DNA of 64,000 bases, from assembly GCA_017654855.1 (NCBI GenBank), contig CM030333.1, positions 2,356,001-2,420,000 of the forward strand. Direction: 5' to 3'. The stretch is from Podospora anserina. Its lineage: Eukaryota. Positions 23,772 through 27,028 of this stretch are shown one piece after another; the first letter of the stretch is position 1; each line of letters begins with the position of its first letter. The notes below the pieces were generated by a model. The model saw only the letters and a program-made list of their open reading frames with translations. It was not told the DNA's origin and did no database searches. Both the position numbers and the translations under genes were made by a program.

Positions 23772-24931
23772 ATGGGTGACTCTAACTCTGGTGCGATAAG
23801 GGCCCTGTCGAAGAGTCCTGATGTCCAAAGCCCCGGGGCCCCGCCCAAGGGTCCTGAAAACACGCCCTATCGAGACTTCGATCGCGAAATCCCGCATTCT
23901 CAAGAGGATGATGACGACGGCGGTTACGCTGACTACTCTCGAGCCACAAGAGGCTCCAATAAGCGTAGAAGCTGTGACGAGCCTCTGGTTTCAAGGTCTA
24001 AGAAGGCCAAGACTGCTGCTCAGTCCAAGGCGGGGCTTAAGAGAGCCCGTAAATTCCAACACCCGCAAGTTTGGGGAAAGAATTCAGGTCTCTTGCAGCT
24101 GCGCAACGGCAATGCCCTTCGCGTACGTATACCTTGACACCACGAATTCCGCGCTGAGGCTGACCTATTTTGCCAAAGGATTTGTTGTTGGCTCCTGGAT
24201 CATGGAACCGTTTGGGCGAGGCCGATCGCCAGACCATCTTGGCCAAATTGCCCAACGGATACCAGCTTGACGGGAAACCCGATGTTGCATCTCTGACAAA
24301 CGACAACAACTTTCGCGACGACTGCTCGCAATACTACAACAGCATCCGGGACGGCCATCTAACTGAGAATTGGCTTACCAAGGCATGGAAAGCCCACTAC
24401 AAAGATGTGCGCGGCGATTTCAAGAAGCATCTTTTCAATGCGTTCATGGACAACTTCATGGAGGATGCTTCTGAGAAGCCCAAGAGGGCCGACAAGGGAA
24501 CGGGCAACGAATTGGGAACTGAATCCAGCAAGAAGACGGAAACGGAGACCAGCAAGAAGACGGACACCGAGGCCAGCAAGAAGACGGACGCAGAGTTTAG
24601 CAACGAGGCCGACACCGAGACCAGCAAGAAGACGGACACCGAGACCAGCAAGAAGCCGGACGCAGAGTCGAACAAGAAAGCAGACACAGAGTCTAGCAAG
24701 GAGGCCGACACAAATTCCAGCATGAAGACGGACACAGATTCCGGCAAGAAGACGGACACCGAGGCCAGCAAGCAGCCGGACGCAGAGTCGAACAAAAAAG
24801 CAGACACAGAGTCTAGCAAGGAGACCGAGGCTGAGGCCAGCAAGAAGGCTGATGACGAACTGGCGCCGGCTGGTGACAACAAAACACAAGATGCCACTGG
24901 CAAAGCTCCTTCGCCCAAGGCCACTGACTAG
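23772..24931 (+). CDS. ASX-homology (DEUBAD)-domain protein, short form of about 367 aa; intron 24123-24178
   Basis: LLLAPGSWNRLGEADRQTILAKLP...PDVASLTNDNNFRDDCSQYYNSIRDGHLTENWLTKAWKAH resembles the fungal ASXH domain. Intron GTACGT...GCTGAC...AAG. Confidence 0.78.
24520..24852 (+). repeat. Coding 24-bp minisatellite (8-aa unit, roughly SKKTDTET/A), about 14 degenerate copies
   Basis: Repeated AGCAAGAAGACGGACACCGAGRCC-like units in the DNA and the translation. Confidence 0.9.
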
Positions 24932-27028
24932 AATAAGGGGCCGAAGCGAAACCCGCCTCGCGCCGTGAAGCGCACACGAGACGAGATGGATGCGGGGTCA
25001 GTTGAGAAGAGGCCGCAGGAACCGAAGGCCAAGGGGAAAGCGGTGGACGAGAATCCCACGTCAGACAAGAGGATCACACGGTCCCAGACTCATTCAGGGC
25101 GTGGAAAAAGGAAAGGTGGTTCCGGGGGCTGGTCTTTATATCGCATTTCAGAGACGAGATTTGATGGGAAGACTGAGGAATTTCAAGGCGACCCTGAAGA
25201 TTCTGAAGCTGCTCGTGATGCAGCAGGAGAGTCTTCCAAGTCGGGGCCTGCTGATGTTCAGAAATCTCGTGACGAGGGAAAGGGTAAAGAGCGTGATGAC
25301 AATGGCGGAGATGATGGTTGTGGAGGGGGTCATGGCGGGAACAGCGACGGTGACAAGAATGATGATGGCAAGAAGGGGGATGGAGATGGGCCGGGTGACA
25401 AGAAGAAGGGCAATGAAGAAGAGGAGGATGTGGAAAAAGAGGATGAGGAAGAGAAGGATGAGGAAGAGAAGGATGAGGAAAAGAATGATGACAACGATCA
25501 GGCCAGCGGACAGACCGGTCTTGAAGATACACCAGATGAAGAAGCCCCCAGGCCTGGCTCTTCCGGCTTTCAGCCTGCATCTAGGAGTCGAAAAAGATCC
25601 CGACCATTATCTTCATCCTCGGCCGGTGGACAATCACCCAGACTCGGCTTTTCGCCTCGATCTAGAACTCGAGAAGCATCCCCATCATTTTTGACACCTT
25701 TGGCCCGTGGACAAACCCCTCGTCCCAGGCCTCAAGGAGGATCCCAACCATCATCTTCTTCTTTGGCCGGAGGAGAAACGCCCAGGCCTCGCCAAACGCG
25801 GGACGATCGAAGAGCCCGCAGACCCAACCAAAGAGATTACCAAATGCTCGCCACGTACCGTGGACGCGGATCTTCAGCGGATTTGGGTGACCCTCGATTG
25901 GTACAATCCCGATGGGATCCGACGGAGGCAAGTTGGCTGAACTTGAGTAACGGGGCCACGATGCAATGGTCGGTAACACACCAGCCCGCAACATATCAGC
26001 CTGGCCCAGTAGAGCAGTCTGTAGAGCAGTCTGTAGAGCAGTCTGCAGAGCAGTCTGTAGAGCAGTCTGACCCAGAAGAGCACGACAGTCTGAATTCTCT
26101 GTTCCCTCGCAACCTACTGTTGATACCTGACAGAAGGTCGCCACGTGACGTAATGAGACGGGTATCGGAGTGGGTTATTACGCAGGATTATGCGCCTTCA
26201 CCCCTTTTGCAGACCATAGCATCATTTTCCGAAACGTCCTCGTCGACTTCACCAAGCCTCAACCTGGCAGCTTCGCCGACATTCAACACACCTGCGAGGG
26301 GGGGATACTCGGTCTACGATGGTATAACCGGTAACGAACTTCCACCGGACCCTCCCCGGCCCCGTCGCGTGACGCCTTCTCCGCTGTCGCCCGCTCCCGC
26401 GGTGCCCCCTCGCCCTGACGTTGAGGGTTCTTCGCGCCCTGGAAGTCCTCCGCCTGAGGGTGACTTGGACTCTTCTGACACTAACCGATATCTCCCCGAC
26501 AGCCCGCTTCCCGACGAACGAGACATGTACCCATTGTTATTTTTTCCTCCCGGTGGCCCAATTTGCGCGATCAATTCCCCGGGGGGAAGAATCTTTCAGG
26601 TAGCCTCGCCGGGACCATCACTGGTTGTTGTCCACCGCGAATCGCAGTCCATTTTCGCCGTTCCACCTTCCAATGCCCGCTTTTCGCCCAGGGGTGAACT
26701 TCGACCGTTTGGAAGGTCTTATGGGTGTGGCACTTTGTTGCCGGGTCTTGTGAGTCCGCTTACTCGTGTTTCGCCCCGGGCTGAGCTGCTGCCGGCCCCG
26801 CCGGGTGTTTCGGAGACTGTGTATGAGAATCTGAATGGGATGGCTGGACGAGATGAGGAAGAGGGTGAACTTGGTAGTGCTGAAATGGATTTGGACGGGG
26901 ATGAGAGTTCAGGTGAGGAGGCTATGTCCAGGCTGAGTATCATGGGTCCAAGGGATGAGATTGGTAGTGTTGAAGGGGATTTGGATGAGGGTGAGAGCAC
27001 AGGTGGTGAGGGTTCGTCTGTGCAGTAA
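24932..27028 (+). CDS. Long low-complexity ORF in frame with the ASXH gene; either a stop-bypass extension or a separate gene from ATG 24986
   Basis: 698 open codons start immediately after TAG 24929-24931 in the same frame. Acidic, Ser/Pro/Arg-rich, with VEQS repeats. Confidence 0.65.
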   Translation, partial: NKGPKRNPPRAVKRTRDEMDAGSVEKRPQEPKAKGKAVDENPTSDKRITRSQTHSGRGKRKGGSGGWSLYRISETRFDGKTEEFQGDPEDSEAARDAAGESSKSGPADVQKSRDEGKGKERDDNGGDDGCGGGHGGNSDGDKNDDGKKGDGDGPGDKKKGNEEEEDVEKEDEEEKDEEEKDEEKNDDNDQASGQTGLEDTPDEEAPRPGSSGFQPASRSRKRSRPLSSSSAGGQSPRLGFSPRSRTREASPSFLTPLARGQTPRPRPQGGSQPSSSSLAGGETPRPRQTRDDRRARRPNQRDYQMLATYRGRGSSADLGDPRLVQSRWDPTEASWLNLSNGATMQWSVTHQPATYQPGPVEQSVEQSVEQSAEQSVEQSDPEEHDSLNSLFPRNLLLIPDRRSPRDVMRRVSEWVITQDYAPSPLLQTIASFSETSSSTSPSLNLAASPTFNTPARGGYSVYDGITGNELPPDPPRPRRVTPSPLSPAPAVPPRPDVEGSSRPGSPPPEGDLDSSDTNRYLPDSPLPDERDMYPLLFFPPGGPICAINSPGGRIFQVASPGPSLVVVHRESQSIFAVPPSNARFSPRGELRPFGRSYGCGTLLPGLVSPLTRVSPRAELLPAPPGVSETVYENLNGMAGRDEEEGELGSAEMDLDGDESSGEEAMSRLSIMGPRDEIGSVEGDLDEGESTGGEGSSVQ

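Follow-up and report, generated by a model that had tools for sequence, protein, structure and literature searches.

An in-frame UAG between an ASXH gene and a conserved downstream reading frame in Podospora anserina: a candidate site of stop-loss editing

The ASXH gene, its stop and the frame beyond it

The window analysed here is a stretch of 64,000 nucleotides from Podospora anserina (GenBank assembly GCA_017654855.1, contig CM030333.1, positions 2,356,001 to 2,420,000 of the forward strand). At positions 23772..27028 its plus strand carries a gene for a protein with an ASX homology (ASXH) domain, a UAG stop codon and then, in the same frame, a second open reading frame (ORF2). An earlier reading of the letters alone (the sequence-only reading) took the UAG to split one gene, and proposed that adenosine-to-inosine (A-to-I) editing of the messenger RNA restores it in the sexual stage. 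The analysis presented here leads to a different form of this proposal. The UAG appears to be the ancestral end of the ASXH gene, and it is about an even bet that sexual-stage A-to-I editing (UAG to UIG) appends ORF2 to it by stop loss, giving isoforms of 367 and 1066 amino acids.

The ASXH gene has two exons. Exon 1 (23772..24122) contributes 117 codons from an ATG at 23772, which was read from the sequence, and is preceded by a 5' untranslated region (UTR) of about 300 nt (23470..23771), with RNA contigs starting at 23470 in run X2 and at 23477 in run X8. An intron of 56 nt (24123..24178, GTACGT...CTGAC...AG) follows. Exon 2 begins at 24179 in phase 0 and runs for 250 codons up to the stop (24179..24928), for a protein of 367 amino acids. 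The exon junction, ...NGNALR|DLLLAPGSW, agrees with the full-length orthologue of P. pseudocomata (P0004).

Exon 2 matches the Pfam family ASXH (PF13919) with an E value of 2.9e-14 and 53.7 bits (cut-off 25.8) over residues 3-91 of P0001, and two full-length orthologues match it as well (P0004, E 4.3e-16, 59.6 bits; P0006, E 1.1e-20, 74.4 bits). By profile score, which lies above the curated gathering cut-off, the gene product belongs to the ASXH/DEUBAD family, and the identity proposed from the letters is thus upheld. In animal ASXL and Asx proteins, the DEUBAD domain activates the deubiquitinase BAP1 and is followed by a long disordered region. The Podospora protein shares the ASXH/DEUBAD domain, and a fused form of 1066 residues would also carry a long disordered tail. 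Unlike ASXL, it has no HARE-HTH domain or C-terminal PHD finger that a Pfam search could find, and ORF2 has no detectable homology to ASXL tails. The 367-residue product is a putative partner of a UCH-type deubiquitinase.

The domain match covers approximately 24188-24454 and is followed by a repeat-rich tail. In this tail, a 24-nt tandem repeat of 13.5 copies (24524..24847; 74% matches, with a higher-order unit of 120 nt) encodes octapeptides of the form S-K-K-T-D-T-E-x. The octapeptide block is shorter in Cercophora samala and is absent from both Triangularia orthologues, and for this reason it is likely to have expanded recently.

The ASXH frame ends in the context GCC ACT GAC TAG AAT AAG GGG, with the TAG at 24929-24931. 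This codon is the ASXH stop and at the same time the candidate stop-loss site, the adenosine in question being A24930. Beyond it the frame stays open from 24932 to 27025, for 698 codons, and closes with a TAA at 27026-28; a read-through product would have 1066 amino acids. A spacer of 18 in-frame sense codons (24932..24985, NKGPKRNPPRAVKRTRDE) separates the stop from the first ATG of ORF2 (24986..24988), which lies 54 nt past the stop and is the sole in-frame ATG among the first 133 ORF2 codons. It has a purine at -3 and a G at +4, and in sibling species it is the annotated start of a separate gene. The message is completed by a 3' UTR (27029..27202), with RNA contigs ending at 27202 (X2), 27165 (X8), 27153 (X9) and 27179 (X10). 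On re-reading, every coordinate given in the sequence-only reading proved to be correct, including the 54-nt gap and the 698-codon continuation to the TAA, and its approximate protein sizes of 367 and 1066 residues were reproduced by translating the spliced gene.

ORF2 (24932..27028) is mostly of low complexity and predicted to be disordered, with conserved blocks. From base composition (stop frequency 0.041), an open run of 698 codons has a probability of 1.8e-13, and the other two frames over ORF2 contain 20 and 54 stops. To find relatives, exon 2 was translated through the stop and the product was compared exhaustively by phmmer with 1.84 billion representatives; the best 150 of 242 matches were listed. 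ORF2 matches a protein of C. samala (P0003) with an E value of 1.5e-30, and the best-conserved ORF2 region searched alone gives 1.7e-22. Two blocks align, one of 45 residues with 71% identity and one of 298 columns with 35%. The latter includes MYPLLFFPPGGPICAI and VVVHRE; the best-conserved part (25934..26761), with MYPLLFFPPGGPICAI and VVVHRE..FA.P, aligns with residues 243-490 of P0003. Because the chance of such an open run is tiny and the protein has been kept in C. samala, ORF2 is, on comparative grounds, coding and not a product of chance; being conserved as a protein, it would have to be translated somehow.

The composition of ORF2 is unusual in several respects. It contains 15-nt repeats in an acidic stretch (25413-25491) and 12-nt repeats encoding VEQS five times (26009-26069), and these are the places where the Podospora relatives differ in length from the window, in frame. 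Its +1 frame has an open run of 241 codons (24969-25694) and a G+C content at third codon positions (GC3) of 0.63; this run resembles a by-product of purine-rich GAN and AAG codons. No Pfam family was found in ORF2, and a search for ORF2 relatives in the Atlas gave no usable match. An AlphaFold2 model, built on a shallow alignment of six rows, has a mean predicted local distance difference test score (pLDDT) of 30.4. The product is thus probably largely disordered, with acidic runs and basic runs that resemble nuclear localisation signals.

RNA contigs across the stop

The RNA evidence consists of assembled contigs, which drop rare variants, from four runs (X2, X8, X9 and X10) belonging to three studies. 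They were taken for alignment from 14 presumed RNA runs, in which 0.53-0.97 of the sampled words occur; six genome-sized runs contain 1.00 of these words (by word match only). The 56-nt intron is skipped, with a joint of 24122>24179, in contigs of X2, X8 and X9, the last with just 19 letters on the short side of the joint; X10 is without cover there. Since contigs show the spliced joint, the runs can be taken as RNA, and the intron model is confirmed. Contig depth increases toward the 3' end in X8, X9 and X10; with a single value for each contig this does not rank the parts of the gene, and no conclusion is built on it.

The TAG is bridged in every one of the four runs by a contig that matches the window collinearly and letter for letter, with 31 or more letters on either side of the codon. 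The longest view is given by X2, where a single contig of 3679 nt extends from 23470 to 27202 over both frames and is collinear except for the intron. No splice joint that removes the TAG is present in the contigs of the four runs. The sequence itself offers 51 frame-preserving GT..AG intervals of 40-600 nt over the TAG, none of which has a consensus GTRNGT donor, in line with the earlier statement that no good donor would splice the stop out. Because the RNA contigs carry the TAG, and neither a joint nor a consensus donor removes it, the TAG is genuine, transcribed and not spliced out. A sequencing error or a private allele had been named as a possible source of the TAG; its presence in RNA contigs of four runs and three studies, together with the length of the P. 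pseudocomata orthologue, also 367 amino acids, shows that it is neither.

The pentamer CTGAC, which precedes the acceptor of the real intron at 24123-24178, also precedes the stop, from 24924 onward. It was considered as a branch site and rejected: the acceptors are out of frame with the only nearby donor, GTGACA at 24873, and no splice that uses this CTGAC is present in the contigs of the four runs.

Two separate transcripts had also been named as a possibility to be checked. The single contig over both frames fits one mRNA, with the reservation that a contig over two genes does not prove one molecule. On such a message, the ASXH gene alone would leave a 3' UTR of about 2.27 kb. The means reported for P. 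anserina are 303 nt for the 3' UTR, 275 nt for the 5' UTR and 1581 bp for the spacing between genes (PMC9801653).

The main rival explanation, to which this reservation belongs, is that there are simply two genes. Transcription of ORF2 would begin separately, within the 3' coding portion of the ASXH gene, and its message would be translated from the ATG at 24986 into 680 amino acids; that the two frames agree, that the spacer is open and that the stop is UAG would be coincidental, and the long contig would be made up of overlapping or read-through transcripts. We regard this as unlikely, if still a serious alternative. With a gap of 54 nt, the promoter and 5' UTR of ORF2 would have to lie within the coding part of the ASXH gene, and the 3' UTR of the latter within ORF2. 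No contig of the four runs starts or ends near the junction of the two frames (contigs cannot show transcript starts). Furthermore, a transcript table from 37 RNA-seq experiments, which keeps only transcripts overlapping a single coding sequence, has entries for the neighbouring genes Pa_2_5670 (6 occurrences) and Pa_2_5690 (1) and none for Pa_2_5675 and Pa_2_5680, the identifiers of the ASXH gene and ORF2 as deduced from the locus tags of sibling species; about 30% of all genes are likewise without an entry. The short gap, the single contig, the absence of contig ends near the junction and the absence of single-gene transcripts fit a single transcription unit.

The stop and ORF2 in relatives

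The nearest proteins are from Podospora species, with 87-97% identity. The ASXH tail of the window was aligned with those of P. pseudocomata, C. samala, Triangularia setosa and T. verruculosa, and the ASXH proteins of all four relatives stop at the homologous position. The tail in the window reads ...TQDATGKAPSPKATD against ...TQDATGKAPSSKAN in C. samala, and the Triangularia ends align less closely. In P. pseudocomata the orthologue is P0004 (QC762_205675), a 367-residue ASX DEUBAD protein. Judged on these protein ends, the ASXH family has its ancestral, canonical stop at this UAG, from which it follows that any editing would be stop-loss and not restorative.

This changes the view taken in the sequence-only reading. 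The idea that the UAG splits the ASXH gene and that editing restores it does not agree with four of four relatives ending at this position, nor with the lack, among the best 150 of 242 matches, of a homologue that spans both halves, nor with the narrow distribution of ORF2. The orthologue comparison proposed there was carried out on proteins: those of the four relatives all end at the site, and a continuation through a sense codon (TGG) was not seen.

The same comparison bears on the possibility that a recent nonsense mutation broke a gene of about 1066 codons, with ORF2 now decaying, or that the TAG is an assembly error. A lone in-frame stop with a long open continuation is indeed what a young nonsense allele would look like. 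Nevertheless, this explanation is highly improbable and, on the protein comparison, close to refuted. The stop position is common to P. pseudocomata and C. samala, and plausibly to T. setosa and T. verruculosa. The window, the Logan-derived relative P0002 and three sibling species all have an intact ORF2 that varies only by in-frame indels at repeats, and conservation of ORF2 extends to C. samala. No orthologue among the best 150 of 242 matches reads through the site, and the TAG is found in the RNA of all three studies.

ORF2 has a narrow distribution. Among the best 150 of 242 phmmer matches, only three (P0002, P0003 and P0010) have their best stretch in ORF2, while the others match the ASXH domain or the repeat tail. 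Two matches have a HMMER envelope that lies over the stop; by BLASTP they have only the ASXH domain in common with the query. Word-indexed searches with the whole protein, an ORF2 profile and the conserved region returned only P0002 and P0003. The P0002 cluster comprises proteins of 658-667 amino acids and "unknown function" from P. comata, P. pseudopauciseta (QC763_205680) and P. pseudoanserina (QC764_205680). P0006 and P0003 are the consecutive C. samala accessions KAK0665554 and KAK0665555, from one contig of 117,654 nt. ORF2 therefore looks lineage-restricted, being found only in the Podospora anserina complex and C. samala among the matches listed. Metagenome scans for the DNA of relatives at this locus gave no match, and no Neurospora orthologue is among the ten further ASXH matches named.

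The adjacency of the ASXH gene and ORF2 in C. samala as well appears to support a linked unit. The annotations can also be read in favour of two genes, since they model the two frames separately: the ORF2 proteins of P. comata, P. pseudopauciseta and P. pseudoanserina start at the homologous methionine, and C. samala has two gene models. P0002, P0152, P0153 and P0154 begin at the homologous MD(A/G)GSVEK, and an Atlas entry equals the ORF2 of the window from residue 19 as methionine, that is, the 680-residue form, whose presence there fits an ORF2 gene with its own start. The purine at -3 and the G at +4 of the ATG at 24986 also suit such a start.

Against this stands the position of the start codon, which differs between Podospora and C. 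samala. In Podospora, the sole early methionine of ORF2 is codon 19. In the C. samala model, the first methionine aligns with Phe84 of ORF2, and the block of 71% identity starts directly at residue 2 of P0003. On the alignment, then, the start codon is not shared between the two lineages. Because high identity begins immediately after the C. samala methionine, coding homology probably reaches upstream of the annotated C. samala start. This non-conserved start suggests, as far as the alignment goes, that coding continues upstream of the annotated start, as would be the case for a frame that is entered through the stop of the ASXH gene.

Editing as stop loss and the other routes to ORF2

A-to-I editing is described as common to the Sordariomycetes (PMC10776026), and of the three stop codons only UAG is turned into a sense codon by it (PMC11156358). 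Since the nearest proteins are from Podospora and C. samala, the host appears to belong to a lineage in which editing occurs. In the accessible literature, no report of A-to-I editing or catalogue of sites was found for Podospora; one preprint on a sexual time course of P. anserina (bioRxiv 10.1101/2024.12.09.627484) only lists ADAT genes.

In the restorative class of edited UAG codons, editing corrects a premature stop codon (PSC), as in PUK1 and about 70 PSC genes of Fusarium graminearum (PMC4817773, PMC10776026, PMC11156358). At the edited site, orthologues of PSC genes have a sense codon, in most cases TGG, and homology extends to both sides of it (PMC10776026), and the genes themselves are often mis-annotated as split genes or with false introns (PMC4817773, PMC10776026, PMC11156358). 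The locus described here resembles PSC genes in having an in-frame UAG inside an otherwise single long ORF, and in that its full-length protein, too, would be produced only once the UAG is edited in the sexual stage. It differs from them in its relatives, all four of which end here, while none of the best 150 matches spans both halves. It thus lacks the defining trait of PSC genes, and the sequences do not place it in the restorative class.

In the stop-loss class, editing extends a protein beyond its canonical end. In F. graminearum, 403 genes show stop-loss editing, and the tails of 24, 11 and 27 amino acids added to FgDBF2, FgMOB1 and FgCDC14 act as degrons, with editing of 70-78% (PMC13123824). 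Here, too, a UAG stop that appears conserved in position is followed by an in-frame extension on the same mRNA contig. As in FgDBF2, FgMOB1 and FgCDC14, this would be a position-conserved canonical UAG in a predicted hairpin, in a Sordariomycete, with a C-terminal extension produced by a sexual-stage UIG. The tails in Fusarium are compositionally biased, disordered and of low conservation except among close relatives, and ORF2 is similar in these respects. Unlike them, the candidate extension here is 698 amino acids long, with blocks that are conserved between genera, and annotations treat it as a separate gene.

A second comparison is with rfk-1 of the Neurospora Sk-2 element, where an early UAG is edited only in sexual tissue. 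The resulting RFK-1B grows from 102 to 130 amino acids (+28) and is a meiotic-drive poison; TAG>TAA and TAG>TGG alleles were used to study it (bioRxiv 10.1101/2020.12.30.424869). The likeness would be one mRNA with two isoforms chosen by UAG editing. The difference is that the change here would be from 367 to 1066 amino acids, in an adaptor of chromatin or the ubiquitin pathway. If editing occurs, the locus would by analogy work most like the Fusarium DBF2, MOB1 and CDC14 stop-loss sites and Neurospora rfk-1.

The proposed sequence of events is as follows. The two in-frame ORFs, split by the UAG, would lie on a single message of some 3.7 kb (from 23470 to about 27200, with one intron). During vegetative growth, ribosomes would halt at the UAG and release the 367-residue ASXH/DEUBAD protein. 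In sexual development, the ADAT-based machinery would deaminate A24930 in a predicted hairpin loop. The UIG would be decoded as tryptophan, and translation of 698 more codons would add a largely disordered, basic and acidic, lineage-specific tail, yielding the 1066-residue isoform. Editing would thus be stop loss acting on an ancestral canonical stop and not repair of a nonsense mutation. That A24930 is edited, when this happens and that ORF2 reaches the ribosome by this route is what we infer from the anatomy, the spliced RNA contig, the stop position and the coding nature of ORF2.

Editing makes two demands on such a locus, a shared frame with an open spacer, and a UAG instead of UAA or UGA, and both are seen here. 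For unrelated tandem genes, the chance of the same frame and an open 18-codon spacer is approximately 1/3 x 0.47 = 0.16. UAG makes up about one stop in three by chance. Taken together, these figures give a chance of roughly 0.16 x 0.3, or about 0.05, for all three features at once, a coincidence that two unrelated genes would have to accommodate.

The surroundings of A24930 were compared with those of known edited sites. The context is C-U-[A]-G-A-A-U, with U at -1 and a purine at +1, as in every UAG. In 61-nt windows (30 nt on each side, the method of Liu et al. 2016), as well as in windows of 41 and 31 nt, the minimum free energy (MFE) structure is a hairpin, GGCC.CUGACUAGAAUAAG.GGCC (24919..24942), that places A24930 in a loop of 10 nt; its probability of being paired is 0.02. 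Loops contain 62.4% of edited sites in F. graminearum (PMC4817773). On this strand of the window, 157 of the 443 TAGs (35%) are of the same loop class. The predicted placement in a hairpin loop thus gives mild support to editing.

Several observations weigh against stop-loss editing. The contigs of all four runs read A at 24930 and show no A>G there, rare variants being dropped from contigs. The weaker sequence preferences known from F. graminearum are matched at +3 and not at -3, -2, +2 and +4 (PMC4817773), and the stability of the hairpin is ordinary, since 38% of the loop-class TAGs fold at least as well (z score of -0.31 in the 61-nt window). The known stop-loss tails are tens of residues long, not 698 (PMC13123824). 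No fused protein matching both halves was found among the best 150 of the 242 phmmer matches, and ORF2 is annotated as an adjacent separate gene in the sibling Podospora species and in C. samala. An ORF2 homologue in Triangularia was not found among the best 150 of 242 matches either, which indicates that the short form is sufficient alone. Finally, GC3 is 0.50 in ORF2 and 0.665 in the ASXH frame, which points to different codon regimes. The last of these observations is among those that favour two genes, as are the apparently ancestral ASXH stop and the ASXH protein of Triangularia, which needs no ORF2 to be complete.

Translation might also enter ORF2 on the same, unedited mRNA, if ribosomes read through the UAG in a programmed way or terminate there and reinitiate at the ATG at 24986. 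These routes share the anatomy on which stop-loss editing is built (one mRNA, the same frame and a short gap), and are nevertheless quite improbable. A search of 23300-27400 for Rfam recoding elements, at E values up to 1, gave no match, and the local fold is without unusual stability. Leaky stops are typically followed by C, or by CAR-YYA, and UAG-A AAU AAG is unlike these contexts. To our knowledge, reinitiation after an ORF of 367 codons is not expected in eukaryotes.

It is tempting to take stop-loss editing one step further. In this stronger form, which is possible but rather doubtful, ORF2 would have no start of its own, and would be a disordered module of 600-700 residues translated only through UAG editing in fruiting bodies since before the split between Podospora and Cercophora. 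Editing would then be a developmental switch that fuses two annotated genes, and ORF2 might have been born from the 3' region of the ASXH gene through exposure by stop loss.

Stop-loss editing is common in the Sordariomycetes, and its usefulness is disputed, with a PNAS paper of 2026 (PMC13123824) and a reply said to take opposite views. If the stronger form is true, so that an edited stop is the only way into a conserved tail of 698 residues, the locus would give clear evidence of selection for keeping a stop-loss product. Editing would then also be able to join two annotated genes, and would offer a route for new coding sequence downstream of a stop. If editing of A24930 is confirmed, the locus would have a canonical stop whose editing adds a conserved tail of about 700 residues annotated as a separate gene, an unusually long case of a known mechanism. 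In both the Podospora anserina complex and C. samala, what is modelled as two genes may be one gene gated by editing.

The published record adds little on these genes. Pa_2_5675, Pa_2_5680, Pa_2_5670 and Pa_2_5690 were not found in the main texts of published papers. The terms Asx, ASXH, DEUBAD, PF13919 and IPR028020 are absent from four supplementary files of PMC13123824 and from five of PMC4817773 (file 1 left out), and a search for literature on DEUBAD or ASXH in fungi found nothing relevant.

The flanks of the transcript show three minor features. At position 27155, in a T-run of the 3' UTR, the X10 contig has an extra T, a difference in homopolymer length from the window. A second X2 contig (27225-27400) starts 23 nt past this mRNA and probably represents the 3' end of a convergent minus-strand gene (ORF 27564-28343), in which case the two transcripts almost abut. 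In the divergent region upstream, a long minus-strand ORF (22502-23077) contains a long simple repeat at about 22936-23010, which translates to poly-Pro in the minus-strand direction and to poly-Glu or poly-Gly in the plus-strand direction.

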